Positions 1,402-15,749 are shown, counted from the stretch's first letter. The stretch: 17,645 nucleotides of DNA from Thermoplasmata archaeon (GCA_030640585.1 DAOWIZ010000029.1:1-17645), one strand, 5' to 3'. Notes: generated by a model not told the origin, from the letters alone. Translations and numbers: made by a program.

Positions 1402-1438
1402 CAAATTATCATCCACTGCATCAAAGAAAAACATTTTT

Positions 1439-1510
1439 AGCCCCGTAGTGTAGCGGTTAACATAAGAGACTCTGGATCTCTAGTCGCCAGTTCGAATCTG
1501 GCCGGGGCTG
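1439..1510 (+). tRNA. tRNA-Gln (anticodon CUG)
   Basis: Hand-folded cloverleaf. Acceptor stem AGCCCCG/CGGGGCT (A1-U72). D stem GTGT/ACAT. Anticodon stem AGAGA/TCTCT with loop CTCTGGA, giving anticodon CTG. T arm GCCAG-TTCGAAT-CTGGC. Discriminator G. No encoded CCA. Confidence 0.9.
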
Positions 1511-1544
1511 TGACTTACTCATTGGTTTGTTAGGTGAGATAATT

Positions 1545-3233
1545 ATGGATTCAAAAGAAAATGTATCTAAGGATTTCATACGTGAAATCATTGATGAGGA
1601 TTTGAAGACAAATAAATATGATGGTCGCGTACATACACGTTTTCCACCTGAGCCCAATGGTTATCTTCATATTGGTCATGCTAAATCTATTTGCCTGAAC
1701 TTTGGCATCGCTGGAGAATACAAGGGTTTGTGTAATCTTCGTTTTGATGATACTAATCCTGCAAAAGAGGAAGAGGAATACGTTAAATCAATTATCAATG
1801 ATGTTCAATGGCTAGGTTTTGATTGGGGTGATCGGCTTCTTTTTGCATCTGATTATTTTGATCAAATGTATAATTATGCTCTTGATCTAGTGAAAAAGGG
1901 AAAAGCCTATGTTGATGATCTAAGTGCTGAAGAAATCAGTTCCTATCGTGGTACTCTAACACATCCTGGAATAGACAGCCCACATCGCAATCGACCTATT
2001 GAAGAAAACATTGAACTATTTAAAAAAATGAAAGCAGGCGAGTTTGCAGATGGGAAAAAGGTTCTACGGGCAAAAATCGACATGTCTCATCCTAATTTGA
2101 ATATGCGTGATCCTATAATGTACAGAGTCCTGCATGCAAGCCATCATAGAACAAAAGATAAATGGTGTATTTATCCTATGTATGACTGGGCACACGGTCT
2201 TGAAGATTCTATTGAAAATATCACTCATTCTATTTGTACACTAGAGTTTGAAAACCATCGACCTTTGTATGATTGGTTCCTTGACAATCTTGGTGTTTAT
2301 CACCCGCAGCAGATAGAGTTTGCACGTCTTAATCTCACATATACTGTTATGAGTAAACGAATGCTGCTAGAACTGGTTGAAGAAAAACATGTCAAAGGAT
2401 GGAATGACCCGCGTCTACCAACAATTAGTGGAATGAGACAACGTGGTTATTCACCTGCATCAATTAGGAATTTCTGCAGTCGCATAGGTGTTGCAAAGGT
2501 AAATAGCATCGTTGATTTCGCATTTCTTGAATACTGTGTCAGAGAAGATTTGAATAAGACCTGTAATCGGTTTATGGGCGTTCTAAACCCATTAAAAGTA
2601 GTCATCGAGAACTATCCCAAGGACAAAGTAGAAGAGTTTGAAGCAGTAAACAATCCAGAAGACCCTAAAGCTGGGAAACGAAAAGTTCCATTTACTAAAG
2701 AACTATATATTGAACAAAATGATTTTATGGAAGACCCTCCAAAGAAGTTCTATCGATTGACACCAGGAAGAGAGGTAAGATTCAGATATTCATATCTAAT
2801 AACCTGTCAAGAAGCAATTAAAAAAGATGGAAAAATAGTAGAACTTCGTTGTACTATTGACCCAGAGACACACGGTGGCTATGCATCTGATGGACGACGT
2901 GTCAAATCAACAATTCACTGGGTTTCAGCACCTAATGCAATTGATGCAGAAGTCAATCTTTATGATAGATTGTTCACAGTAAAAAACCCTGCAGGTCAAA
3001 AAGATAAAAACTTCAAAGAATTCCTGAATCCTAAATCACTTGAGATACTCACAAACTGTAAAGTAGAGCCGGCCGTACAAAAGTTGAAACCGTTTGACAG
3101 ATTCCAATTTGAACGGCTTGGATATTTCTGCATAGACCAAAATACAACAGATAAAAAACTTATAATTAATAGAACTGTAACTCTCCGCGATACATGGGCA
3201 AAAATACAGAAACAGCAACAAAACAAAAAATAA
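1545..3233 (+). CDS. glnS: Glutaminyl-tRNA synthetase (class I, bacterial-type)
   Basis: Collinear along its whole length with E. coli GlnS as I recall it. Shared blocks include [26 protein letters not shown] (HIGH), [38 protein letters not shown] (KMSKS variant), GW.DPR.PTISG.R.RGY and FQFER.GYFC. I prefer the ATG at 1545, which has GGTGA 7 nt upstream, over the track's in-frame TTG at 1527. There is no eukaryote-type N-terminal extension. Confidence 0.93.
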
Positions 3234-3335
3234 AAAATTTTTACCAATAAAGATGAAAATTATAAATATTATACTTTTATTCCGGTCATTATCAACACCG
3301 TAACAATCAATAGATATAAATATCAAATTTTATTT

Positions 3336-3406
3336 AGCCCTGTGGTGTAGTGGTAACATACTGGCCTTTGGAGCCTGCGTCAGCGGTTCAAATCCGCTCA
3401 GGGCTG
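3336..3406 (+). tRNA. tRNA-Gln (anticodon UUG)
   Basis: Hand-folded cloverleaf. Acceptor stem AGCCCTG/CAGGGCT (A1-U72). D stem GTGT/ACAT. Anticodon stem CTGGC/GCCTG with one U-U mismatch, and loop CTTTGGA giving anticodon TTG. T arm AGCGG-TTCAAAT-CCGCT. Discriminator G. A T6 run follows at 3407-3412. Confidence 0.85.
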
Positions 3407-3418
3407 TTTTTTCCATTT

Positions 3419-3493
3419 GCTCCCGTGGTGTAGTCCGGTCAATCATTCCAGCCTTTCGAGCTGGCTACACGGGTTCGAATCCCGTCGGGAGCA
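3419..3493 (+). tRNA. tRNA-Glu (anticodon UUC)
   Basis: Hand-folded cloverleaf. Acceptor stem GCTCCCG/CGGGAGC. Anticodon stem CCAGC/GCTGG with loop CTTTCGA, giving anticodon TTC. T arm ACGGG-TTCGAAT-CCCGT. Discriminator A. The D-arm sequence GTGTAGTCCGGTCAATCAT is archaeal-looking. It starts 12 nt after tRNA-Gln(UUG). Confidence 0.9.
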
Positions 3494-4759
3494 TACCTCC
3501 GCACTCCTGTTGTTTCCATTCGAAACAGGGGTTTTTTCAGGTGTTTTTAAAATTAAGCCATTTTCTTGTCCCACATTATATGTATTTTTGTGGAATTTCA
3601 AGATGGCTTTAATCCAATCATAAGACGCATTGCGATAATATTGCTTTGCGTATCTTACATAATCCTCTGTTGTACCGACTTTGTCATGCCCAAGCCATTC
3701 TTTTACATCCCATATGTCCCAGTGTTTGGTTTCTACCTTGCTTTTGATTAGTCTTGCTATTGCACACCAGTGTCTCATTATGTATGGATGATAGTAGTTC
3801 CATACTGGTTTGACGTTTTGATTAAGATATTTTCCCAGATATGCTCTTGTGAATGGTCTACCATTTGGTTGTATATAGAGATAGTCTTCGCTGTATTGAT
3901 TTGCTACTTTTGGTCTCCAGTGTTCGATCCAGTTTTTCATACTTTTACGTCTGAGATTAGTCATTAGGTCTTTTTCTGGAAAAATCTGTCTCGGCTGTCC
4001 ATTCTTTTTTGACTCTGTAATAATGATATAGCCATCGTCAAGGAACACATCGCTTACTTTTTGAATTATTATTTCACTTGGTCTCCACCCTATTGTAAAA
4101 CCATGAGCTAAAATGTACTGTATCAGTGCGTTTTTGTATAGATTCTTTGAGTATTTATGCTGGATTAGTTGATAGGTTGTGTTTGGTAGTGGTACAATTT
4201 TTACTTTTGGTTTCGGCGGACTCGGTGGTATGTATCCCCAGAGTTTTGCATCTATTCCATATGCTTTTGCAAATGTTTTCACTGTTTTCCATTCATTGAT
4301 TATCTGAAATTTTCCTCTTTCGTTTTTGTATTCTTGGTATTCTTTGTATTCAAGATATGCTATGATCTGATTTGTGTTTAATTCAAACCAGTTTACTGGA
4401 AAAATGCTGTGTTCTGCCATTTTTTTAGCGTAGCGTAGCCTGTCTTTGATGGTTCTTTCGTTTTTTCTGTACTTAAATATCCACCAGTGTTTGATCGCGT
4501 CAAATAGTTCTTCTTGTGTTTCATATTGTTCTGGATCTATAATATATGGGTTTTTGATTTTTTCAACATCTAATTTTCTTATATTTTGCTTTGCTTCACC
4601 CATTTCCTCCACAACTGTTTGTGTGGTTTTTTGCTCGAAATGTTTTTGGCATATATTTTCTAAAATTTGTTTCCATTCTTGGTTTCTACCTCCTTTCAAT
4701 TCATTTTTTGGATTGGTTTGAATCGAATTGTATGTGTTGTTAATAGTTGTATTTATCAT
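3443..4759 (-). CDS. Tyrosine recombinase / phage-type integrase
   Basis: 438-aa ORF with a C-terminal catalytic domain. Motifs: GWRPSE (Arg I), YIMRHWCAIA (box with Arg II) and WLGHDKVGTTEDYVRY, which matches the XerC/D-like pattern LGH....TT..Y carrying the nucleophile Tyr. The last 51 nt (3443-3493) are antisense to tRNA-Glu. The stop codon TGA is the reverse complement of 3443-3445. Confidence 0.8.
   Translation of the reverse strand: MINTTINNTYNSIQTNPKNELKGGRNQEWKQILENICQKHFEQKTTQTVVEEMGEAKQNIRKLDVEKIKNPYIIDPEQYETQEELFDAIKHWWIFKYRKNERTIKDRLRYAKKMAEHSIFPVNWFELNTNQIIAYLEYKEYQEYKNERGKFQIINEWKTVKTFAKAYGIDAKLWGYIPPSPPKPKVKIVPLPNTTYQLIQHKYSKNLYKNALIQYILAHGFTIGWRPSEIIIQKVSDVFLDDGYIIITESKKNGQPRQIFPEKDLMTNLRRKSMKNWIEHWRPKVANQYSEDYLYIQPNGRPFTRAYLGKYLNQNVKPVWNYYHPYIMRHWCAIARLIKSKVETKHWDIWDVKEWLGHDKVGTTEDYVRYAKQYYRNASYDWIKAILKFHKNTYNVGQENGLILKTPEKTPVSNGNNRSAEVCSRRDSNPCSQLERLE
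3504..3537 (+). terminator. Hairpin plus T6 tract just downstream of tRNA-Glu
   Basis: CTCCTGTT (3504-3511) pairs with AACAGGGG (3524-3531), and TTTTTT follows at 3532-3537. The structure lies inside the C-terminal tail of the antisense integrase ORF. Confidence 0.4.
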
Positions 4760-5353: not shown

Positions 5354-5809
5354 GTGAAGATTGACGCCATTAACAAAAAAATTCTTTATCTCCTACAAAA
5401 AGATGCACGGATGACCTACAAAGACATTGCAAACCATCTCAAACGATCAGAAACAACAATACGCGATAGAATACGAGCAATGGAGAAGGTAGGTATCATT
5501 CAAGGATATACTGCATTAATTGATAAAACTGCACTAGGGTTAAACTTCTTTGCAATAATACTTGCAAATCCGATCTCATCATCTGACTTAGATAAAGTAA
5601 CTGAGAAAATAAAAAAATTGAAAAATGTTATGAGGGTCTACCAGATATCAGGTAAACAACGACTTGCGATTTTCATGGTGACACAATCTTATAAGGAATT
5701 GAAAGAAATCCTCAGAACACAGATCATACCAATTGGATTAAAGGATGATGAAATTATCACTGTTCTTGAGGCAGATCGTGAGTTTATTTCACCGATTGAA
5801 ATACCTTAA
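5354..5809 (+). CDS. Lrp/AsnC family transcriptional regulator
   Basis: 151-aa ORF. The N-terminal HTH reads D.INKKILYLLQKDARMTYKDIANHLKRSETTIRDRIRAMEKVGIIQGYTA and is followed by a RAM/AsnC_trans_reg-like C-terminal domain. GTG start. Confidence 0.85.
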   Translation: MKIDAINKKILYLLQKDARMTYKDIANHLKRSETTIRDRIRAMEKVGIIQGYTALIDKTALGLNFFAIILANPISSSDLDKVTEKIKKLKNVMRVYQISGKQRLAIFMVTQSYKELKEILRTQIIPIGLKDDEIITVLEADREFISPIEIP

Positions 5810-6242
5810 AAAAAACTAGGTTTAATCGGTAAAAATCTTATTAGATGAAAACTTTGTAAATTTTACTTTTTAGTTGAAATTTCCGTGGATAATGGTTTTT
5901 TGTTATTCAATTTCACAGGAATCCTATAGTAGTGTTTATGAATTTTATTTTTCTACTATATTCTAAGGGTTTGCCCCTAACGAGGTGACAAATGGGACCA
6001 AAAAAGAAAAAGGGAAAAAAGGATAAGAAATAAAAATTGAGATACCTCTGCTCCTATCCATCATGTTCATTTTAGGCAGCGGATTTTTTAATTAAAGTGA
6101 TCCTGGAGGGCGGATAACGGTTTTTCCTCCTCCGCTCTCAACTTTAAATTATTTACTATAAAAAAAGCGCGGTTTTAACTGATCATTATTCTATCGATTA
6201 TAGAGATGTATTTATAAAAATCACTCTCATAAAAAATGATAT

Positions 6243-7190
6243 TCAATATATAACAAAAGGAATATCTAATTTTTCAACTATTTCTTTATATCGATTCCGA
6301 ACAGTTACTTCGGTAACACCTGCGACATCAGCAACCTCTCGTTGTGTTCGTCGTTCTCCACAAAGAACTGATGCGATGTACAAAGATGCTGCAGCGTTTC
6401 CTGTTGGCCCTCGCCCAGTAATCAATGCTTTCTCGGCTGCAAGTTTTAATATCTCCATTGTCTTGACTTGAACTTCATTACTAAGTTTTAATTCACTGCA
6501 GAACCGAGAAATATAATCCTCAGGCAAAGTAGGAAGGAGCTTCAGTTTGAGTTCCTTTGCAATAAACCGGTAGTTTTTCCCAATTTCTTTTCTTTTAATA
6601 CGAGATATCTCACTCATCTCATCTAACGTCCGTGGTATATGACATTGCCGACATGCTGCATATAATGCTGCTGCAGCAACACCTTCGATGCTTCTACCAC
6701 GTATAAGATTTTTCATTGCTGACTTTCGATAAATCATGGCAGCTGTTTCACGAACTACTCTAGGAAGCCCCAAACTAGAAGCCAGCCGATCCAGATTAGA
6801 CAATGCAAGTGCAAGGTTTCTCTCAGTGCCATCTGCTATACGTATTCGACGTTGCCATTTTCTAAGTCGGTATAACTGTGCACGATTTCTAGTTGGAATC
6901 GTTTTTCCGTATGAATCTTTGTTACTCCAATCAATTTCAGTGCTTAATCCTTTATCATGAATTGTATATGTCATGGGTGTACCAGTACGCGACCTTTTTT
7001 CCCGTTGATCTCCATCGAATGCGCGCCATTCAGGCCCATGATCAATAAAATCTTCATCTATTACAAGACCACAGTCCTCACACACCAACTCAGCTCTTGA
7101 ATAATCTTTTGACAGGTGGGTGCTCCCACATCCAGGGCATCGAACAATTTCTTCGATACTTTGTTTTTCTTTTTTAGCTAAGTAAATCAA
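6243..7190 (-). CDS. tfb: Transcription initiation factor IIB (TFB)
   Basis: N-terminal Zn ribbon CPGCGS...VCEDCG, then GPEWRAFD, B-linker and two cyclin-fold repeats ([57 protein letters not shown]). It is collinear with Pyrococcus TFB as I recall it. The only in-frame start is the TTG at 7190, so the start call is less certain than the gene call. Confidence 0.93.
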
Positions 7191-7345
7191 CTCCTAAGTA
7201 TGATTTTGAATAATTCGAATAGTTCATAGACATTAGAAAAAATAGAATCATATAAGGTATATTTAACTATCCATGGGAAAATGCTGTTTAATTTAGTTAT
7301 TTTTGATGATAATTCTTATTAGCGTCACCATGTTATCTGGCTAAT

Positions 7346-8416
7346 ATGAAAATCAAATCAATTTCAGCTTACCCGTTAGACCTTAGATTAAAAGAGCCTT
7401 TCGTAATTGCAAATGAGACAATGGAAATAGGTGAAAATGTTTTTTTTAAAATTGAAACTGATGAAGACATTACTGGATGGGGTTGTGCAACACCAGACAG
7501 TGTTACATCTGAAACAAAAGATACTGTAATTGATAATTTCAATAAAATAGTTAAAAATATTTTAATTGGACAGGATCCAACAAGAATCCATTTTTTAAAT
7601 GATGTTATTGAAGATAAAATAAAGGGTAATCCTTCGTTAAGAGCAGGTATTAATATGGCTCTTTATGATATTCTTGGAAAGAAGGCAGATATGCCCTTAT
7701 TTAGACTTCTTGGAGGGTATAGAGATAAAATTGAAACCTCTATAACAATTGGTTTGAACCCAGTTGATGTCATGGTAGAAAAAGCCAAGGAACTTGTTTC
7801 TCAAGGATTTACTTGTCTCAAAGTAAAATGTGGAATGGATCCAGACCAAGATATTGAAGTAGTACTTGCGATAAGGAGCACAGTTGGCCCAAATATAAAA
7901 ATCCGCTTAGATGCAAATGAGGGTTACACTCTTGAAAAAGCCTTACGTGTGATTGAAACACTCGAGAAACTAGGAACAGATATCGAAATGCTTGAACAAC
8001 CAACTCCAGCTAAATATTTATATGCTTTAAAGGAAGTAACAGCACAATGTCCAGTTCCGATCATGGCTGATGAAACAGCTCTTACTCTTAGAGACAGTCT
8101 TAAAACCGTTAAAATGGAAATAGCAGATATGATTAATATTAAACTTATGAAAATCGGAGGGATTACAAACGCCATCAAAGCAAACACTTATGCAGAAATT
8201 GCAGAAATTCCTGTGATGATAGGTTGTATGAATGAATCAATGGGCGCTATGGCCGCGGGGGTACATTTTGCCTGTGCTTTTAAAAATGTACAATATGCTG
8301 ACTTAGATTCTGCCTTAGATTTTGAAAAAGATATAGTAAAAGGCGGAGCTACTTATAAAGATGGATTTGTCATTCCATCAAATAAACCAGGACTAGGAAT
8401 AGAGGTTGATTTGTAA
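7346..8416 (+). CDS. Enolase-superfamily racemase/epimerase (dipeptide epimerase / N-acyl-amino-acid racemase-like, MLE subgroup)
   Basis: 356-aa ORF with KxK (CLKVKCG), metal ligands in RLDANEGY, LEQP and MADE, and a second catalytic Lys in NIKLMKIGG. This is the MR/MLE pattern seen in L-Ala-D/L-Glu epimerases. Confidence 0.85.
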   Translation: MKIKSISAYPLDLRLKEPFVIANETMEIGENVFFKIETDEDITGWGCATPDSVTSETKDTVIDNFNKIVKNILIGQDPTRIHFLNDVIEDKIKGNPSLRAGINMALYDILGKKADMPLFRLLGGYRDKIETSITIGLNPVDVMVEKAKELVSQGFTCLKVKCGMDPDQDIEVVLAIRSTVGPNIKIRLDANEGYTLEKALRVIETLEKLGTDIEMLEQPTPAKYLYALKEVTAQCPVPIMADETALTLRDSLKTVKMEIADMINIKLMKIGGITNAIKANTYAEIAEIPVMIGCMNESMGAMAAGVHFACAFKNVQYADLDSALDFEKDIVKGGATYKDGFVIPSNKPGLGIEVDL

Positions 8417-9766
8417 GTGAAAAAAAGTTATAATGATGTTCTTGATGATGTTCCATCTTATAGTCGTTTTTTAAAGGTAGATGAAATTGATAATTTAGTG
8501 AATCTAATAATAAAATTACCTGGTGTAAAACATAAGGTTATAGGCAAGTCATTAAACGATGAACCACTAGTAATGCTTGATATTGGAAAAGGGGAAAAAA
8601 CTGCATTGATAATTGGAGTGCCTCATAGCGATGAACCACTCGGTAGTTTGGTTATAACATTTTTTTCTCGTTGGCTTGCAACGCATCCTGAAAAAGAAAA
8701 TTTTGGTTGGAGATGGCTATTCATACCTATGCTTGAAAGACGAGGAATGCGACTAAATGAGGGATGGTTCAATATGCCCGAGTCATTAGCAGATATGGCA
8801 AAATCTAATTTTAGAGAACCAACTGAGGATCAATATGAATGGACATTTCCAATTCAATATAACGATTATGAATGGACAAAATCTAGACCCGAAACAATTG
8901 CTGTAAAAAATGTACTTGAGCAAGAAAAACCAGATCTGTTATGCAACCTTCATCATTGTGGTTTTCATAATGCATATTATTATCTTAGTGAAGATTTTCC
9001 TGAAATTTATCCTAAACTAAGGAAACTTGCATCTAATCTAAGAATGTCTTTATCAGATACAGCACCTGATGTTCCATTTGGAAAAATGTTTTCCCCAGGT
9101 TTTTATCAGATGTATGGATTAAAGGATTATCTTGATTATTATAGTAAAAAAGATCCAATTGTATTAACTACAATAAAAAGAGGTGCCTGTAGTGACGAAT
9201 GGTATCAAAAACAAATTGGAGGGTTCAGTTTCAACTGTGAAGTACCAATGTATTTATCATCAAAACTACAGGATATAAAACCATCAGATAAAAGTTATAA
9301 AAAAGTAATGGAAGGACGTTATCGTATAAAGAAAAATAGACTAAAATACTCAATCAGACTAATAAACATTATAAAAGACTATTCAGACCTAGCCGATCCC
9401 CTTCTTCTAAATGTTGCTGAAAAACATATAGCAAATGCCCAAAACTCTTTAGACCATGAAAAAAGAGCTTTAAAGGTTACTGAAGGCAAAATAGCATCAA
9501 ATGCAGAAGTTTTTGAAAATGAAGTAATTGTAGATTTATTTGGCATATTCTTTCTTGGCCAAATATGGCGTGTCGCAGAAAGCATTTGTATTAAAGGTAG
9601 TACTCCTACAATATGTCAATTAATGGAAACAGCAGATATTGAAATTAAATCTCTCGGAAAAAGTGTCGAAGAAAGAGGAGCGTTTTATCATATCCCGATA
9701 CGAAATTCAGCAAAAATGCAACTGGGAAGCATCTTGCTCATATCTGATGCATTAAAAAGAAAATAA
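8417..9766 (+). CDS. M14 carboxypeptidase / AstE-AspA-like zinc hydrolase family protein (putative)
   Basis: 449-aa ORF. Its GTG start immediately follows the epimerase stop (TAAGTG), with GAGGT 10 nt upstream. It carries an HxxE zinc motif in IIGVPHSDEPLGS and a distal His in CNLHHCGF. The assignment rests on motifs only. Confidence 0.55.
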   Translation: MKKSYNDVLDDVPSYSRFLKVDEIDNLVNLIIKLPGVKHKVIGKSLNDEPLVMLDIGKGEKTALIIGVPHSDEPLGSLVITFFSRWLATHPEKENFGWRWLFIPMLERRGMRLNEGWFNMPESLADMAKSNFREPTEDQYEWTFPIQYNDYEWTKSRPETIAVKNVLEQEKPDLLCNLHHCGFHNAYYYLSEDFPEIYPKLRKLASNLRMSLSDTAPDVPFGKMFSPGFYQMYGLKDYLDYYSKKDPIVLTTIKRGACSDEWYQKQIGGFSFNCEVPMYLSSKLQDIKPSDKSYKKVMEGRYRIKKNRLKYSIRLINIIKDYSDLADPLLLNVAEKHIANAQNSLDHEKRALKVTEGKIASNAEVFENEVIVDLFGIFFLGQIWRVAESICIKGSTPTICQLMETADIEIKSLGKSVEERGAFYHIPIRNSAKMQLGSILLISDALKRK

Positions 9767-9767
9767 T

Positions 9768-9850
9768 CTCCCCTTCCCTAATTATTCATAAGTATACGAT
9801 GAATAACTCTCTGCTGGGGAGGTAGATGTTGATCTTCGAGCTACTTTTTT
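9768..9850 (+). terminator. Nested hairpin plus T6 tract downstream of the epimerase/hydrolase pair
   Basis: Outer stem CTCCCC (9768-9773) pairs with GGGGAG (9816-9821). Inner stem TTATTCAT (9782-9789) pairs with ATGAATAA (9799-9806). TTTTTT lies at 9845-9850, and a second small hairpin plus T6 lies at 9871-9895. Confidence 0.35.
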
Positions 9851-10128
9851 ATAAGGACAATGTTCAAACACAACATTAGGTGTTGCACGTTTTTTCACAA
9901 GATTTTGTAGTTTCTTCGTATAATCTTCTTTGCATTTATTCTTATTCTCCTGCATGGTTCTCTCCTATATATGTTCATTCTTCCTCTTATGAGAAGATGA
10001 TATTCTGTAATATTGTATCTGCCTCTGTTTCTATTTATATGGTTTTTGGTATAAAATATCAAAATGGCATTTTATCATTAATTTGGTTTCATGGAAACCT
10101 TTTTGAACGCCCTCCAGATGCGGCCATT

Positions 10129-10602
10129 ATGTATGATGCTGGTGTTATCCGAAGAGCAACAATCCATGATCTCCCAGAGATTATAAAGTTGGAACAGAAA
10201 TGCTTTCACACGAATAGTGCATATACTCCCAAGCAATTGCTCTATCTCATCACTCGAGCTAATAGCAATTGCCTATTACAGCAACTAAACCATTCTATTC
10301 AAGGGTCCATTATTGTACTGTATAAACAAGGATCAGAAGTTGCCGGCATCGAAACCATAAGTGTCGATCCTCATTGTCGCGGTCAAGGCATTGGGAAAAG
10401 ACTCCTTGGCGCCGCTGAGAAGGACATGATATACAGAGGGATACAAAAAATCCGTCTCGAAGTTTCTATCGGAAATTTCCCAGCAATACAACTCTATCAA
10501 AAATCCGGTTTTAGAATAACAACGATTTTAAAGGACTATTACACCTATGAGAAATATGGCAGTCATGATGCGTATCGAATGATTAGAGAATTAACTACGT
10601 AG
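10129..10602 (+). CDS. GNAT family N-acetyltransferase (RimI-like)
   Basis: The acetyl-CoA binding core reads ISVDPHCRGQGIGKRLL, with downstream LEVSIGNFPAIQLYQKSGF. I place the start at the ATG at 10129, giving 157 aa. The track's upstream 83 aa from the GTG at 9880 are hydrophobic junk with no GNAT-like sequence. Confidence 0.8.
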   Translation: MYDAGVIRRATIHDLPEIIKLEQKCFHTNSAYTPKQLLYLITRANSNCLLQQLNHSIQGSIIVLYKQGSEVAGIETISVDPHCRGQGIGKRLLGAAEKDMIYRGIQKIRLEVSIGNFPAIQLYQKSGFRITTILKDYYTYEKYGSHDAYRMIRELTT

Positions 10603-12045
10603 CACTTCTTTCTCATTTTTATGAACAGAAACCCAGTTGTTATCATCAAGAACACAATATCCTAAAGTATATTGCTCCAAGATATGCAAAAGTTGTTTTC
10701 TGAGATGAAATGGAATGAGCGAGAGATCGCATGTTTCTTTGTTCATATGAATTTTTTCCACATGATCAACAGGTTTATAATTTTGATTATTACCTATAAG
10801 ATAAAAAGAATGATTTTTCTCATCCTGATCAAGTCTTAATTTTAATGGATCAACCTGACTCAGAAAAGATTCAATATTTTCGTTTTTAAAGTTCATTATT
10901 TTTGGATTTGCTTTATTAGCTAATAGAAAAAGTAAAACACCCATACATTTTGAACATGTTCCACATGGTACAATCCTATTATTTTCAAAATGACATGAAT
11001 GGCATGATCGTTGAAACCTTGCAAGTTTCGGGTAATGCTTAACAAGTATTTTTTCCACAACTAAGCCAGATATATTTCTAACTGCTGACCATTGATGCAA
11101 ATCGGGTATTCTTTTAGTATACCAATTATTCATAATATTATCATAATCCTGATGTTGGTCATATATTCCATAAAAATGTTTAATTCCAAGATATTCTAGA
11201 GTGGATCTTAAATCATCAAATTCACTACCAATAAGAAGATTGCCTATTTTTTTATCAACAAATATTGGTAATAACAAAAAAACATAAAATGGAAAAATGC
11301 ACAATCGAATGGGATACGTATCAGCCCATATTTTCCTATGATCAGATCTGATAAATTTTAAATTATCAAGCATAAAAACATAAAATCGGTCAACATTTGT
11401 CCAAACACGATAAGTGTTTGAATCAATTTTTTTATGATATCTATAAGCAGGAATAGCAGTTCTCCAGTGGCCTCCACTTTCATTTATATACAAAGGATAT
11501 GTATTGCATCCTATCTCATTTAATAGACCATAGGTTAAAAGGCTTTCTTTACCCCCGCTAGAGAGAATACCACAGCTATTCTTGTCCACATCTGGTGAAA
11601 TTATTTTATCATTGTAAACTTGAGATGGTTCAATTATTGCTTTTGAATTAGCATCCTCAGGTTTTACATCTTCTTGTTTCGGAAGGAAATCTGAAAGAAT
11701 ATAGTTAGTTCTTCTTCGCAGTATCTTATTTACAAAAATATCTCTGCTAAAAATTCTATTTAACTCGTTTAAAATATTATAATCTGTTTTACTTATGGGA
11801 AAATTCAATTTGAACTTTTTTGAAAATAAACCATAATTTAAAAGTGGCATTGTAAAAGCAAGTCGTAATAGTGGAAGAGAGTCATCTTTAACTTTTTCTT
11901 GATATTTTAGCATAATTGAAAAAGCAGATTCATCGCCCTCTGTTTTATTTAGAAATATATTTGTTTTAACACTTTTACCATTAATTATTGGTTCTGAAAT
12001 TTCAATTGAAGAAAAGCAAACCATATCAGGTATTTTACCTGACAT
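10591..12045 (-). CDS. Uncharacterised PP-loop (adenine nucleotide alpha-hydrolase) superfamily protein with C-terminal Cys cluster
   Basis: PP-loop-like CGILSSGGKESLLTYG sits mid-protein. A QueC-like cluster CHSCH-x9-CGTCSKC lies near the C-terminus. I place the start at the ATG at 12045, preceded by GGAGGA at 6-nt spacing. This start overlaps the upstream DUF1611 gene by 11 nt. Confidence 0.7.
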   Translation of the reverse strand: MSGKIPDMVCFSSIEISEPIINGKSVKTNIFLNKTEGDESAFSIMLKYQEKVKDDSLPLLRLAFTMPLLNYGLFSKKFKLNFPISKTDYNILNELNRIFSRDIFVNKILRRRTNYILSDFLPKQEDVKPEDANSKAIIEPSQVYNDKIISPDVDKNSCGILSSGGKESLLTYGLLNEIGCNTYPLYINESGGHWRTAIPAYRYHKKIDSNTYRVWTNVDRFYVFMLDNLKFIRSDHRKIWADTYPIRLCIFPFYVFLLLPIFVDKKIGNLLIGSEFDDLRSTLEYLGIKHFYGIYDQHQDYDNIMNNWYTKRIPDLHQWSAVRNISGLVVEKILVKHYPKLARFQRSCHSCHFENNRIVPCGTCSKCMGVLLFLLANKANPKIMNFKNENIESFLSQVDPLKLRLDQDEKNHSFYLIGNNQNYKPVDHVEKIHMNKETCDLSLIPFHLRKQLLHILEQYTLGYCVLDDNNWVSVHKNEKEVLRS

Positions 12046-13084
12046 TAAGTTCCTCCAAAAAATCAACGATTTTACTAACACTGTCACTCAAAGGTTCAAT
12101 TACAGGGACATTGAAAAATTTCTTCAGTTTTATTTTTGCATTTTTAATATCTTGTTTATCCATATTCTCACGATTTATACCTATTCCTAATAAGGGTTTC
12201 TCAGTTAGTATCTCTGCAATTTTGACAACCCTCTGAGGATCTGGCATTGGATAGTCTGGAAAACCATCAAGATGAGGTCTTTTTGGAGCATCAACAAGTA
12301 TAAAACCATCTATTTTCCCAGCAGCTAATATCTCAAAACCACCTGGGAAAAAAGGATGGACTAGACTTCCTTGTCCTTCAATAATTATAATATCTGGTCT
12401 TAAATCATTCCAAGAATCAATAATTGCACCTTCGATTCCGCCAGCCACAAAATCATTAATCATAGCATCAAGGACAATACCATGAGGCCAACCCTGGATC
12501 CACCCAGTTTGGCCAGTATATACCATGTCAGTTTTTCTACCTCTTTTCTTTAGTTCTTCATTTATCATAACTGCTATAGTTCTTTTCCCAATAGCAGAAT
12601 CAGTTCCCAAAATTGCAATACGAGTTGATTTAACATCTTTGATATTACCTGTATAAAATCTTTTATGATCACGAAATATCTTTCTTACATCTGTAATTAT
12701 ACAATCATTTTTTTTTGCGAGTTTTTCAAACACAGGATCTTCTGATATGAACTGATGAAGACCAGATACAACATCGAGACCTTTTTCAAGAGCCCAAATA
12801 ACAGCTTTATCATAGCCTTCAGGTAAAACACCTCCCTCTGAGACAGCTCCAATAATAAAAGTATTTACATCTGATTTACTATATGCTTTACCAAGATCAT
12901 TATAAAGAGGTATATTTCTTTTTATACCATCTAAAATTTCACCTGAATCACCTTCAATAAGTGTAGTATCAACAACACATGTTACATCAAATCTTTTACT
13001 ATATCTAACAAGACCATGAGCAGTTTTTCCATCAGCGCAATTAAAAAGCCGATCTGCGTAAACAATAGCACGTTTTTTAGACAT
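12035..13084 (-). CDS. DUF1611 family P-loop protein (DgcN-like)
   Basis: 349 aa, the typical DUF1611 length. Remembered family blocks are present: AHGLVRY, VSGLH, a Walker-A-like ILGTDSAIGKRT, TGQTGWIQG and IIEGQGSLVHP. The ATG at 13084 is preceded by GGGGGGAGGT. Confidence 0.78.
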   Translation of the reverse strand: MSKKRAIVYADRLFNCADGKTAHGLVRYSKRFDVTCVVDTTLIEGDSGEILDGIKRNIPLYNDLGKAYSKSDVNTFIIGAVSEGGVLPEGYDKAVIWALEKGLDVVSGLHQFISEDPVFEKLAKKNDCIITDVRKIFRDHKRFYTGNIKDVKSTRIAILGTDSAIGKRTIAVMINEELKKRGRKTDMVYTGQTGWIQGWPHGIVLDAMINDFVAGGIEGAIIDSWNDLRPDIIIIEGQGSLVHPFFPGGFEILAAGKIDGFILVDAPKRPHLDGFPDYPMPDPQRVVKIAEILTEKPLLGIGINRENMDKQDIKNAKIKLKKFFNVPVIEPLSDSVSKIVDFLEELNVR

Positions 13085-13122
13085 TACCTCCCCCCAAACT
13101 CTAATTTGAATTTAAACGTAAT

Positions 13123-14253
13123 TTACTTTCTCCCCGTCAAAATAATAACATATCGATCATTAGGTAATGGATCTTTTTTATGTTTTTCTAAAAGTGCAAT
13201 AAGACCGGCAGTGGAAGCAGGTAACACACTAAGTCCCTCTTTTTCCCGTAGTTTTTTCGAAAAAAACATCATATTTTTATCACTAGCATAAGCACCCCAT
13301 CCACCAGATTCTCTAATAGCCTCAAGAGCATAATCACCATCAATAGAACGCCAGTTAATCAAAGGTTCATTGATGGCAGTTTCATGAATTTTTTTTGGAG
13401 ATAGATCCTCACAAGCAGAAAGATTTTTCAAAAAGGCTTGAATAATAGGGTTTTTTCCAAAAGATGAGCCAGCTATTATCCTAGGAATCTTAGATGTTTT
13501 ACCACGTCTATAAAGACTAACAAAACCTTTGTACACTCCAGCAAGGGTAGTACCATTAGAAACAGGCATTGCCACAACAGCTGGTGCATCACGCAATTCA
13601 TCATAAATCTCATAGGCTATCTCACCATATGCACGGAGTTGAATCATAGTATTCTCCCCGCCAGCATTAGCATCATAATACTCTTTTTTATCAGCCATTT
13701 CCTGAGAGACGTTCACCGCGTTTTCATAATCTCCAGTTACACGAATAATTCTTGCACCATTCTCTTCAATTTCTTTAATTCTACTGGTATGATATTTTTC
13801 AGGGATATATATCTCACATTCTATCCCTGAAATAGCTGCAGCAAGAGAAATTGCAGCTCCATAATTTCCACAAGTAGCAACGGTAACAGTATCGTAACCT
13901 CTTCTTAATGCATCCATAACTTGAGCAAAAGCAATACGATCTTTCTGAGTACCCGTTGGTGTTGTTCCTTCGAATTTTAAAAAAATTTGACGAAGACCAA
14001 ACTCACGTTCAATATTTCGAGCACGAGTAAGATTAGTGTCACCAATCTCAGAGTCAATAATGTCCTCCAAAGCTTCTAATCTTTCTTCTAGAGGTCGGGT
14101 TGTATTAGTAGCGATTTTTCTCTGAGACTCAAGATCTAGTGCAATAAGTGGAAACTGAGAACGAGCACCATCTAAAATAGATAAGATAGGTTCATCGTTA
14201 CTATTATTTACGGTTTTTACATTGTTATTGTTTTTTTGTTTTTTTTCATGCAT
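13123..14253 (-). CDS. PLP-dependent enzyme, fold type II (threonine synthase / Trp-synthase-beta-like)
   Basis: PLP-lysine block LKFEGTTPTGTQKDRIA (compare NPTGSFKDR). Also ATCGNYGAA, SNGTTLAG and a C-terminal ILTGRK. About 80 aa at the N-terminus, including a poly-Asn stretch, have no match I recognise. It sits 38 nt upstream of the DUF1611 gene on the same strand. Confidence 0.82.
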   Translation of the reverse strand: MHEKKQKNNNNVKTVNNSNDEPILSILDGARSQFPLIALDLESQRKIATNTTRPLEERLEALEDIIDSEIGDTNLTRARNIEREFGLRQIFLKFEGTTPTGTQKDRIAFAQVMDALRRGYDTVTVATCGNYGAAISLAAAISGIECEIYIPEKYHTSRIKEIEENGARIIRVTGDYENAVNVSQEMADKKEYYDANAGGENTMIQLRAYGEIAYEIYDELRDAPAVVAMPVSNGTTLAGVYKGFVSLYRRGKTSKIPRIIAGSSFGKNPIIQAFLKNLSACEDLSPKKIHETAINEPLINWRSIDGDYALEAIRESGGWGAYASDKNMMFFSKKLREKEGLSVLPASTAGLIALLEKHKKDPLPNDRYVIILTGRK

Positions 14254-14388
14254 AATAAAGCCACTAAACTAAGCATCTCTAGCAAAATTTATTTAATAAA
14301 AATATCGAAGTAGGGTTACTTAAAACTTACGAGCATAGCAAGGTATAATAATCCCTTGAAAGTTATCTCCCATTTGTAGGTGGGTAGT

Positions 14389-14802
14389 ATGAGAAAGATG
14401 TCTGCAAAGTTTGGAAATAATGCCGGGAAAATATGGGTTGCATTAAGCACTCATGGACCACTAACACAATCAACACTTATTAAAACTACAAAATTAACAA
14501 AAAATGATTTTCATACAGCAATTGGATGGCTCGCCAGAGAAAACAAGATCTGCAAAGAAGGGGAGATATACAAACTTGGAGAAACAAATCTAACAAATAA
14601 AATCGGAGAAGATGCAGGAAAAATATGGAAACTAATCGATTCTCATGGAGAAATCGATATATCATCAATTACAAAAGAGGCTGAAATAACAATCTATGAT
14701 GCTTATTTTGCTCTTGGATGGCTTGCCCGTGAGAATAAAATAGACGGGGAAAAAATTAGAAAGAATTCAACCCAACTTAAATTTAAGCTAGAATATGATT
14801 AA
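14389..14802 (+). CDS. Tandem DUF2582-type winged-helix protein
   Basis: Two copies of the module AGKIW...(HTH)...GWLARENKI, at nt 14422-14550 and 14614-14742. I prefer the ATG at 14389, with GGTGGG upstream, over the track's GTG at 14380. Confidence 0.72.
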   Translation: MRKMSAKFGNNAGKIWVALSTHGPLTQSTLIKTTKLTKNDFHTAIGWLARENKICKEGEIYKLGETNLTNKIGEDAGKIWKLIDSHGEIDISSITKEAEITIYDAYFALGWLARENKIDGEKIRKNSTQLKFKLEYD

Positions 14803-15127
14803 AACCAACAATAATTCAGAAATAATTAACGTAATAAATTTATTACTTGCAGAAAAAAGAACGTCTCTAGCGATCTTAAGAACAGCGATAGCAGTATTCA
14901 CTCTACCATTATCTGTTTTTACAGTTTTAGTTGCAACCTCAAAATTCTATGAATTTTATTCATCACTACATTTTCTTATACCATTGTTAATAATATGTTC
15001 AATTTTAATATTTTTAGGAATCTATCTAATCTTCAGATCTTTTAGAAAAATAAAAGAAATAGATTACAAGATCCATGAAATTAAAAAACAACAAAAAACG
15101 ATGAAAGACCTTATTGACTCATGCTGA
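14795..15127 (+). CDS. DUF202 (YidH-like) small membrane protein
   Basis: The motif LLAEKRTSLAILRTAIAV matches the remembered DUF202 signature LA.ERT.LAW.RT, and two hydrophobic helices follow. Its ATG overlaps the upstream stop (ATGATTAA), giving an 8-nt overlap. Confidence 0.68.
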   Translation: MIKTNNNSEIINVINLLLAEKRTSLAILRTAIAVFTLPLSVFTVLVATSKFYEFYSSLHFLIPLLIICSILIFLGIYLIFRSFRKIKEIDYKIHEIKKQQKTMKDLIDSC

Positions 15128-15143
15128 AAAAGATAGTAATATT

Positions 15144-15749
15144 TTATTTACCTTTTCTATGCCATTTGAATAAACGGTGATAGTTATCATACCGTCTCAG
15201 TCTTCTTGCAGGGAATATAGTTGCGGTCCCAACAGAACGGATGTCTTCAACTGAGTAGAATGCATTTGGATTGAATCTTTCAATACATTTTATAACTGTG
15301 TTAAGGTTTTCTCGGCGTATCACAGTAAAAATAATTTTTACTTGTCCTTTTACCCCTTCAGCGTCGACCGTGGTTAATCCATATTTTTCTGATTTAAGAT
15401 GGTTAATCAATTTCGTTGCATCTCGTTTTGTTATGATGCGGATCATTACAAGTCCAATTGATAATTTCTCCTCAGCCAGAAGTCCTACAAGAGTCCCTGT
15501 AGCAAAACCACCTGCATAAAACAAGTAATAGTAAACATTAGTTAGATTTTGCATAATTTGACCAATAGCAAGAAGCCATATCAATATCTCAAAAAATCCA
15601 ATCATTGGAGCCAGATATTTTACTCCTTTTGAAACCAATATGATGCGAAGTGTGCCAAGGCTAACATCACAAACACGGGCAAGAAAGATAAGAATCGGGA
15701 GTATAACCCATGCATAGAGCTCCGGACTGGAAAGTGTAAATAATTCCAT
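15144..15749 (-). CDS. UPF0316 family membrane protein with DUF2179 C-terminal domain
   Basis: 201-aa ORF. The N-terminal membrane part carries DVSLGTLRIILVSKG, GFFEILIWLLAI and YAGGFATGTLVG. A soluble C-terminal domain follows. This matches the UPF0316 (YebE-like) pattern as I recall it. Confidence 0.78.
   Translation of the reverse strand: MELFTLSSPELYAWVILPILIFLARVCDVSLGTLRIILVSKGVKYLAPMIGFFEILIWLLAIGQIMQNLTNVYYYLFYAGGFATGTLVGLLAEEKLSIGLVMIRIITKRDATKLINHLKSEKYGLTTVDAEGVKGQVKIIFTVIRRENLNTVIKCIERFNPNAFYSVEDIRSVGTATIFPARRLRRYDNYHRLFKWHRKGK

Follow-up and report, generated by a model that had tools for sequence, protein, structure and literature searches.

The stretch of DNA analysed here, which we call the window, is a 17,645-nt sequence from a Thermoplasmata archaeon (GCA_030640585.1 DAOWIZ010000029.1:1-17645), and coordinates are counted from its first letter. 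On its minus strand it carries three genes, encoding an enzyme dependent on pyridoxal phosphate (PLP), a DUF1611 protein and a large PP-loop protein of 484 amino acids (aa) for which we use the name X498, and this trio is the core of a six-gene module and is conserved from archaea to bacteria. At the centre of the module is X498, which belongs to an uncharacterised PP-loop family related to MurL. By analogy with characterised systems we propose, with a probability of roughly 0.4, that the module carries out an ATP-driven acylation, epimerisation and deacylation of D/L amino acids or of the C-terminal residues of short peptides. The six genes and the signals that accompany them are as follows.

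14254..14300, minus strand: putative archaeal promoter region, with the A/T-rich TTTATTAAATAAA at 14300..14288, 35-47 nt 5' of the ATG of the PLP enzyme
14253..13123, minus strand: PLP enzyme, threonine-synthase-like, fold type II, 376 aa; first gene of the operon, TAA at 13125..13123
13085..13122, minus strand: 38-nt spacer between the PLP and DUF1611 genes, as read in the sequence, with GGGGGGAGG just before the DUF1611 ATG at 13084
13084..12035, minus strand: DUF1611 protein, DgcN-like putative amino-acid N-acyltransferase, 349 aa; TAA at 12037..12035
12035..12056, minus strand: translational-coupling junction, as read in the sequence, with GGAGGA at 12056..12051, ATG at 12045..12043 and an 11-nt overlap with the DUF1611 stop
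12045..10591, minus strand: X498, PP-loop ATP pyrophosphatase-like, 484 aa; ATG at 12045..12043
7346..8416, plus strand: enolase-superfamily dipeptide-epimerase-like enzyme, 356 aa; the M14-like gene begins immediately after its stop
8417..9766, plus strand: M14-like zinc hydrolase, 449 aa; its C-terminal extension, beyond residue 234, matches no family
10129..10602, plus strand: RimI-like GNAT acetyltransferase, ~157 aa; convergent to X498, the 3' ends overlapping by 12 nt

The packing of the trio, with three minus-strand genes, a 38-nt gap, an 11-nt overlap and a GGAGGA, was found exactly as an earlier note on this DNA had described it, and so were the motifs TGTQKDR (K104) in the PLP enzyme, GTDSAIGKRT in the DUF1611 protein, and SGGKES (residues 163-168) and C348-x2-C351-x9-C361-x2-C364-x2-C367 in X498. 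The GGAGGA lies five bases 5' of the X498 ATG, and the DUF1611 and X498 coding matches overlap or almost abut in most related loci. This packing, together with co-conservation across distant genomes, supports the proposal made in that note that the trio is one co-transcribed, translationally coupled unit; the A/T-rich TTTATTAAATAAA upstream of it is a putative TATA box. We placed the X498 start at ATG 12045, because homologues match the 484-aa form from its first residue onwards and a database entry for an identical 484-aa protein exists, and rejected the longer start at GTG 12087 given by the ORF (open reading frame) finder; a 240-aa ORF for the GNAT from GTG 9880 was likewise rejected and cut to ~157 aa, since homologues match only its last ~158 aa. 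Ending the unit at 10591, as had been done, made it too short: the convergent genes (7346..10602) accompany the trio in other loci as well and are part of the unit, and the epimerase, the M14-like hydrolase and the GNAT, which had been overlooked, are the source of most of the functional clues. Between the M14-like gene and the GNAT start there is a gap of ~360 nt (9767..10128), in which a hairpin followed by T's lies at 10085..10099. The window is archaeal, encoding transcription factor IIB (TFB) at 6243..7190, and its nearest relatives are metagenome-assembled genomes of uncultured Thermoplasmatales/Thermoplasmatota.

We surveyed 93 related loci, those from the metagenome scan all having at least 53% identity and those from a single-protein contig scan being close relatives only, and examined distant members, with 28-41% identity to X498 and a G+C fraction (GC) of 0.42-0.70, individually by contig look-up; the counts given here are for loci with enough flanking DNA. 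The order PLP, DUF1611, X498 was almost universal among the 93 loci. DUF1611 lay directly upstream of X498 in 79 of 80 loci with room for it and the PLP gene upstream in 59 of 60, while a GNAT was present downstream of X498 in 55 of 82, and the epimerase and the M14-like gene were found within 4.5 kb in 21 and 20, respectively, of 36. Synteny is kept through the archaeal clade at 53-92% identity, and the order of the trio also holds in distant lineages, which by the source names of the cluster members are Thermoplasmatota including the acid-mine I-plasma, NC10/Methylomirabilales and Deltaproteobacteria. All of the distant contigs in which X498 has an intact PP-loop keep an adjacent DUF1611 gene, and a PLP gene wherever the contig reaches; five of them have the epimerase in the same operon. 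Loci with the epimerase in the operon of the trio are the contig of P0138, L010, L099-L101 and L104. Two loci of GC 0.66 (L104/L105) contain all six window families, including an M14-like protein 33% identical to that of the window, and in L102 the GNAT follows X498 directly on the same strand. The three families are therefore co-conserved down to 28-41% identity of X498. This adjacency is far beyond chance, for it survives across domains of life, through rearrangements of every other neighbour, and as a gene fusion.

The fusion in question (P0138) joins DUF1611 and X498 in one protein. Others join X498 to a creatininase-family hydrolase (P0139, P0141, P0187 and P0188) or to a methyltransferase (P0142). 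In L103 a PALP-DUF1611-GNAT operon is convergent to X498, which is preceded in tandem by a 452-aa paralogue of the A2 type described below and, before that, by a GNAT-HDAC fusion (648 aa, with a GNAT-like N-terminal region and an HDAC-type deacetylase domain; fusion and paralogue together span 5679..8995 of that locus); an M15 plus beta-lactamase-fold protein adjoins the module there. The hydrolase slot is thus filled by three non-homologous amide hydrolases, M14-like, creatininase and HDAC-like. The one clear exception to the trio is L003 (CP070836.1, a complete Thermoplasmatales genome), where at 6930..11302 X498 has no PLP or DUF1611 gene nearby but keeps the GNAT, M14-like and epimerase genes downstream and has upstream a gene for a 716-aa protein with a DJ-1/PfpI domain. 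Clustering of all neighbouring ORFs yielded no further consistently linked family; genes for a Cu-ATPase, proteasome alpha, NAD kinase and others follow subclades only. At 14380..15749 the window has three further genes, the first for a protein with two DUF2582 winged-helix domains (14380..14802), the second for a small membrane protein (14795..15127) and the third for a membrane protein with DUF5698/DUF2179 (15144..15749). They adjoin the cluster only in several close relatives, which probably reflects inherited synteny and not membership of the module.

X498 has three parts: residues 1-150 form an N-terminal domain, residues 150-385 a QueC-like core that carries a Cys4 ribbon, and the remainder a helical domain at the C terminus. 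It matched no Pfam family at E-values up to 10, gave chance RING-finger matches only in a sequence search of the PDB, and had no tblastn match in 72,556 plasmids, while an exhaustive search of 1.84 billion representative proteins recovered 209 relatives. An AlphaFold2 model made with 18 diverse homologues (pLDDT 92, pTM 0.91) had as its best Foldseek matches in the PDB QueC-type PP-loop proteins throughout, namely QatC, NcsA, QueC, Cap9, TtuA, YcfA and LarE; the E-value for QatC 9y01_B was 6.6e-4 and the TM-score on the target was 0.62-0.63 for QueC 2pg3 and 3bl5. In the model the PP-loop motif comes after the strand 154-162, and S, G, G, K and S of SGGK[ED]S are fixed in the 18 diverse members. 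The assignment of the third protein as a PP-loop enzyme, made at first from its motif, is thus upheld by the invariance of that motif and by a QueC-like fold. Other invariant residues are E189, H193, D219, R220, E275, D277, D296, Q297, Q345-x-S-C348 and C361-G-x-C364-x-K, the GNE, DQ, QxSC and CxxCxKC motifs being conserved in the family. The CxxC-x9-CxxCxxC cluster stands as far as its cysteines are concerned, but C351 is not conserved; C348, C361 and C364 are invariant and C367 is present in at least 90% of the 18 diverse members, and the predicted family-wide metal site, of the QueC type, consists of these four, which are also invariant in the MurL-like family A2.

With QueC, QatC and Cap9, X498 shares the fold, the SGGxxS loop and the C-x(n)-C-x2-C-x2-C ribbon. 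It differs from them in having no sequence-level match to QueC models, in its extra N- and C-terminal domains of ~150 and ~100 aa, and in that there are no queuosine or defence genes near it. Family members are named 'hypothetical', 'metal-binding protein' or QueC in their sources; nothing found here supports the name QueC, which one IMG record carries, and both it and 'metal-binding protein' are probable mis-namings. The N-terminal domain, modelled alone (pLDDT 91.5), gave weak, non-significant RNase-H-like matches to EndoV, UvrC and PIWI (E-values ~5e-3, TM-scores ~0.3), and we did not make an RNase-H-like assignment on these. Four relatives (P0187, P0188, P0169 and P0222) lack the SGGK motif, having for example DGTRES or SGSAES in its place, and two of them are fused to creatininase domains; P0188 (L095) stands alone, with neither DUF1611 nor PLP neighbours. 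These relatives may be inactive scaffold versions.

The sole curated NCBIfam family touched by X498 was MurL, at 15.1 bits and an E-value of 0.006 against a cut-off of 700, the comparison being made through model NF041275 and the profile of the MurL-like family A2 in place of a true MurL sequence. Nine of 18 family members matched the MurL model, with a best E-value of 1.2e-4, and matched no other characterised family. Family A2 consists of more distant relatives of ~450-500 aa, with source names from CPR bacteria (candidate phyla radiation) and DPANN archaea, which match X498 at 1e-8 to 1e-11 and MurL down to 6e-12. Alignment of the X498 family with A2 by hhalign gave a probability of 99.95 and an E-value of 6e-38 over 291 columns; these begin at the PP-loop and take in core, Cys ribbon and C-terminal domain, the N-terminal domain being left unmatched. 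In some loci of A2 (L096-L098, P0238 and its relatives) the MurL-like gene is followed by a gene for a D-Ala-D-Ala-ligase-like ATP-grasp protein and a radical SAM gene, and by analogy this pairing may be another ligase-plus-epimerase pair like MurD2/MurL.

The stretch of the MurL model that is matched corresponds to the part of X498 holding S320, the QxSC motif and the CxxCxxC ribbon, and both proteins are of ~450-500 aa. There is also a likeness in what would come before, a partner first putting an acyl group on the glutamate nitrogen, MurD2 in the one case and, as we propose, DUF1611 in the other. MurL is, to our knowledge, so far the sole example of an ATP-dependent peptide epimerase. The organisms that encode MurL with MurD2 make peptidoglycan and have no glutamate racemase. 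The archaeal host of X498 is not expected to make peptidoglycan, and scans of the window ORFs and the contexts looked up showed neither MurD2 nor another Mur ligase; the partners of X498 are instead DUF1611, the PLP enzyme, the epimerase and the hydrolase. Because X498 scored 15 bits against 700, has no MurD2 nearby and comes from an archaeal host, we conclude from its sequence and context that it is not a MurL orthologue, yet MurL is the closest characterised enzyme. MurL depends on ATP and Mg2+ and turns an N-acyl-L-Glu at the C terminus into D-Glu, in that direction only and with release of AMP; adenylation of the alpha-carboxyl was proposed, and the enzyme was described in 2018 and again in 2021 as one that 'lacks known conserved domains' (PMC5808125, PMC8788868). 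Its use of ATP and release of AMP fit PP-loop chemistry. The present comparison places MurL-like proteins in the QueC-like PP-loop fold, with an archaeal sister family, and so offers the MurL-type mechanism a structural frame, as well as another, simpler system for testing it.

The DUF1611 protein has both domains of the DgcN architecture (Pfam DUF1611_N, E-value 6.4e-22, and DUF1611, 9.6e-55), and its GTDSAIGKRT is invariant among 83 DUF1611 sequences. It scored 167.2 bits with the NCBIfam DgcN model (NF041892), under the cut-off of 480, and matched in the PDB 2G0T (1.9e-38), 7XRJ (2.6e-33) and also 2OBN. By its description 7XRJ is DgcN, a D-glutamate acetyltransferase (bioRxiv 10.1101/2024.10.14.618325), and DgcN/DgcA are outlined as an irreversible acetylation-racemisation route for D-acidic amino acids (PMC12363236, PMC10845958; bioRxiv 10.1101/2024.10.14.618325). 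The idea that the DUF1611 protein is a nucleotide-dependent activating enzyme was given up, since DgcN, the sole characterised member and the protein of the 7XRJ match, is an acetyl-CoA-dependent D-glutamate N-acetyltransferase; the window protein is better regarded as a DgcN-like putative amino-acid N-acyltransferase.

The PLP enzyme belongs to Pfam PALP (E-value 1.5e-56), with threonine synthases (ThrC; 2ZSJ and 2D1F, ~1e-27) as its nearest solved structures, and shares with ThrC the fold-type-II PLP fold and a Schiff-base lysine, ThrC also being its nearest profile. When 63 PLP proteins from trio loci were aligned with the ThrC sequences of Aquifex and M. tuberculosis, we saw that the ThrC loops SFKDR, STGNT and PVGNAGN, whose roles we take to be those usually given, are replaced by TQKDR, TCGNYG and PVSNGTT, invariant in the trio-linked family, and that the ThrC stretch NPxRxEGQKT has no conserved counterpart there. 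The protein passed NCBIfam PRK06381 ('threonine synthase') at 434.1 bits against a cut-off of 266 but remained below that of TIGR00260 thrC (107.6 bits against 167.1); we know of no experimental support for the name of the first model. Because TIGR00260 was not reached and the ThrC loops are replaced, we read the enzyme as a ThrC paralogue with altered active-site loops, not a bona fide ThrC; it also differs from ThrC in being always encoded with DUF1611 and X498, and 'threonine synthase' is a probable mis-naming. The three are not separate housekeeping genes but a co-conserved unit, with the reservation that the PLP protein nominally passes a threonine synthase cut-off, an outcome that the earlier note had set against its own claim. 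Its N-terminal extension, put before at ~80 aa, was overstated; the real extension is ~40 aa, because PALP starts at residue 67 and the ThrC structures align from their own residue 26, and its first 20 residues are not conserved; in the second archaeal subclade and in distant lineages the extension is missing.

Among the convergent genes, the epimerase has Pfam MR_MLE_N and MR_MLE_C domains, and its best NCBIfam match is L-Ala-D/L-Glu epimerase (NF041118, 240.8 bits, cut-off 500), ahead of the DgcA model (160 bits, 1e-46, cut-off 400), the N-succinylamino-acid racemase (NSAR)/OSBS model (148 bits) and PRK15129 (118 bits, cut-off 343). In an alignment of 30 sequences K158 and K160 (KxK), the D of RLDANEGY, the E of LEQP, the D of MADE and the K of NIKLMKIGG were invariant, and by inspection we assigned these as the probable KxK, D/E/D metal ligands and second catalytic Lys. 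The M14-like protein matched Pfam Peptidase_M14 weakly (22.3 bits, cut-off 21.6), with an invariant H-x-x-E (H and E of PHSDE) and downstream Glu, and a sequence search of solved structures found no relative of it. The GNAT matched Pfam Acetyltransf_1 (E-value 8e-16) and, at 75 bits, fell below the cut-off of 86 for TIGR01575 rimI.

Taken with these assignments, the six genes suggest a sequence of steps by way of N-acylated intermediates, most likely serving to invert or fix the stereochemistry of the substrate, for which the substrates, the direction (D to L or L to D), the site of adenylation and the part of the PLP enzyme are what we infer. In the first step DUF1611, the GNAT or both would N-acylate an amino acid, as DgcN does D-glutamate. 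X498 would then spend ATP on adenylating the N-acyl amino acid at its free alpha-carboxylate, making the alpha-proton more acidic, possibly by way of an oxazolone, and so giving a one-way epimerisation and AMP, as was proposed for MurL; an epimerase activity with conversion of ATP to AMP is accordingly what we predict for X498 by analogy. In a third step the enolase-type epimerase would do the same to dipeptides or N-acyl amino acids, but reversibly, in a fourth the hydrolase would strip the acyl group or split the dipeptide, and the ThrC-like enzyme would act on the free amino acid before or after the other steps. The product of DgcN, N-acetyl-Glu, is a minimal analogue of the MurL substrate, so that DgcN and MurL would appear to converge on one type of molecule, an N-acyl-glutamate with a free alpha-carboxylate. 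The DUF1611-X498 fusion and the translational coupling suggest that these two proteins catalyse consecutive steps, and we would argue that the deacylation is obligatory because three non-homologous amide hydrolases fill the hydrolase slot. D-amino acids accumulate in old sediments, and in sediment Thermoplasmatota the likely purpose would be to recover D-amino acids from detritus that is racemised or comes from cell walls. The ecological setting fits, because Thermoprofundales live on aged detritus enriched in D-amino acids (PMC6752024).

All of the parts fall into known superfamilies, and their logic resembles, by analogy, that of the Dgc, MurD2/MurL and N-succinylamino-acid racemase systems. 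The DgcN/DgcA D-glutamate catabolic pathway, which Yu and co-workers are said to have reported in ISME J in 2023, likewise combines a DUF1611 protein, an enolase-superfamily racemase and a deacylation step, and in the window DUF1611 and the enolase-type epimerase share a cluster on convergent strands. The window proteins nevertheless score far under the equivalog cut-offs (DUF1611, 167 against 480; epimerase, 160 against 400), a DgcR-type regulator was not seen in the window, and the module adds a PP-loop enzyme, a ThrC-like enzyme and a GNAT to the Dgc system as it is described. The N-succinylamino-acid racemase pathway of Geobacillus kaustophilus, reportedly worked out by Sakai and colleagues in 2006, is said to use a GNAT succinyltransferase, an enolase-type racemase and an L-desuccinylase for an irreversible D-to-L conversion. 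As we understand that pathway, the same GNAT, enolase-superfamily and metallo-amidohydrolase types occur at 7346..10602 of the window; in contrast, the hydrolase of the window is M14-like rather than M20, its epimerase is nearer to dipeptide epimerases than to NSAR/OSBS (241 against 148 bits), and the trio has no counterpart there. No description of this gene combination was found in the literature searched, in line with the earlier note, which did not recognise the trio as one that had been described, and a short pathway on an amino acid or small peptide-like molecule, as then suggested, is the right level of description. With the module, the DgcN/DgcA route for D-glutamate, itself a recent discovery, would be extended to a larger conserved set, and there would be concrete, testable genes by which D-amino acids might be used in Thermoprofundales and other microbes of the subsurface. 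The fullest form of the proposal is that X498 founds a MurL-related family of epimerases, driven by ATP and independent of cofactors, whose N-acyl amino acid substrates come from a DgcN-like acyltransferase that is in some cases fused to it, and that with the ThrC-like enzyme this family forms a new irreversible D/L stereoinversion pathway that feeds energy-starved sediment archaea and some bacteria on racemised or cell-wall-derived amino acids; this we advance tentatively and hold to be doubtful.

Several observations weigh against the stereoinversion pathway. The PLP enzyme, the most tightly linked partner after DUF1611, has no assigned step in it, and the 15-bit score makes X498 a distant relative of MurL, with a core that is common to all PP-loop enzymes. 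Two types of epimerase and two types of acyltransferase seem a redundancy beyond what a simple linear stereoinversion would need. The DLD motif of the epimerase is invariant, and this motif, which we take to bind the free N-terminal ammonium of dipeptides, would suit dipeptides over N-acyl substrates of the N-acetyl amino acid type. In a second archaeal subclade the trio occurs with or without the GNAT, and the epimerase and hydrolase are not nearby. No transporter consistently linked to the module was seen among the neighbouring genes, and most of the 93 loci come from related Thermoplasmatota and are thus not independent.

Of the alternatives, the one that survives best, although we consider it unlikely, is the biosynthesis of a modified amino acid or N-acyl dipeptide that might be cyclic or have the D configuration, by a logic like that of D-cycloserine biosynthesis. 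An acetyltransferase would activate a hydroxy-amino acid, the PLP enzyme would carry out a beta- or gamma-replacement, the epimerase would invert the centre, the PP-loop enzyme would close a ring or form an amide with ATP, and the hydrolase would trim or detoxify the product. Such a scheme gives a natural central role to the PLP enzyme, fold-type-II enzymes typically catalysing beta-replacement on O-acyl or O-phospho substrates, and it agrees with the activities of QueC-like enzymes, which are carboxylate-amine ligases or amide-forming (QueC, QatC and Cap9 being among the top Foldseek matches). It would also account for the fusions of X498 to the creatininase family, whose founder hydrolyses a cyclic amide, and once to a methyltransferase, and for a family as rare and patchy as 209 representatives among 1.84 billion proteins. 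However, the synteny is kept vertically in the whole archaeal clade, in the manner of core and not secondary metabolism, and genes for export, regulation or resistance are not linked to it with any consistency. The characterised DUF1611 member, moreover, acetylates nitrogen and not oxygen, and interchangeable non-homologous deacylases suit catabolic or salvage deacylation better than tailoring.

A special case of the stereoinversion proposal, which we judge quite improbable, is the recycling of peptidoglycan stem peptides, by which bacterial cell-wall debris would be fed into archaeal metabolism. The M14-like protein would act as MpaA does and the epimerase as the L-Ala-D/L-Glu epimerase (YcjG/YkfB), with DUF1611 and X498 converting the released D-Glu. 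This is consistent with the best NCBIfam match of the epimerase (241 bits), with the abutting of the epimerase and M14-like genes without a spacer, and with glutamate as substrate of both DgcN and MurL. The M15 plus beta-lactamase-fold protein beside the module in L103 and the D-Ala-D-Ala-ligase-like gene adjoining the CPR MurL-like paralogues point the same way. Against this, all of the matches lie well under the family cut-offs, a search of solved structures gave no relative for the M14-like protein, a large subclade has the trio without a nearby epimerase or M14-like gene, and the PLP enzyme is left without a role.

Very unlikely, in our estimate, is modification of a macromolecule by X498, either an RNA base, as with TilS, ThiI and NcsA, or a protein terminus, as with QatC and Cap9, the PLP enzyme and DUF1611 then making or acylating the attached amino-acid-derived group. 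Many PP-loop enzymes act on tRNA, the top structural matches of X498 include NcsA, TtuA, ThiI, QatC and Cap9, and the weak matches of its N-terminal domain to EndoV, UvrC and PIWI are of the RNase-H type; these last are not significant, however, and a dipeptide-type epimerase and interchangeable small-molecule amidohydrolases in the operon would go unexplained, while the fusion with DUF1611 and MurL as nearest family point to small-molecule carboxylates. That there is no common pathway, only a real threonine synthase and two unrelated genes held together by inherited synteny, has hardly any likelihood, for although PRK06381 was passed (434 bits against 266) and most of the loci examined are from related Thermoplasmatota, the order survives in bacteria and archaea at 28-41% identity while all other neighbours change, a DUF1611-X498 fusion exists, the 11-nt coupling overlap is present, and the PLP family has invariant loops of its own and fails TIGR00260.

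Elsewhere in the window, a bona fide glutamine--tRNA ligase (GlnRS) is encoded at 1527..3233 (TIGR00440 glnS, 739 bits, cut-off 426) and is flanked by tRNA-Gln(CTG) at 1438..1511 and tRNA-Gln(TTG) at 3335..3407, the whole occupying 1438..3407. Because archaea normally lack GlnRS, this gene and its tRNAs may have been acquired horizontally. A 438-aa tyrosine integrase at 3443..4759 on the minus strand overlaps tRNA-Glu(TTC) at 3418..3494 by ~50 nt, and a low-GC stretch (~0.31) follows it to ~5500; the region 3418..4759 looks like an element integrated at a tRNA gene.

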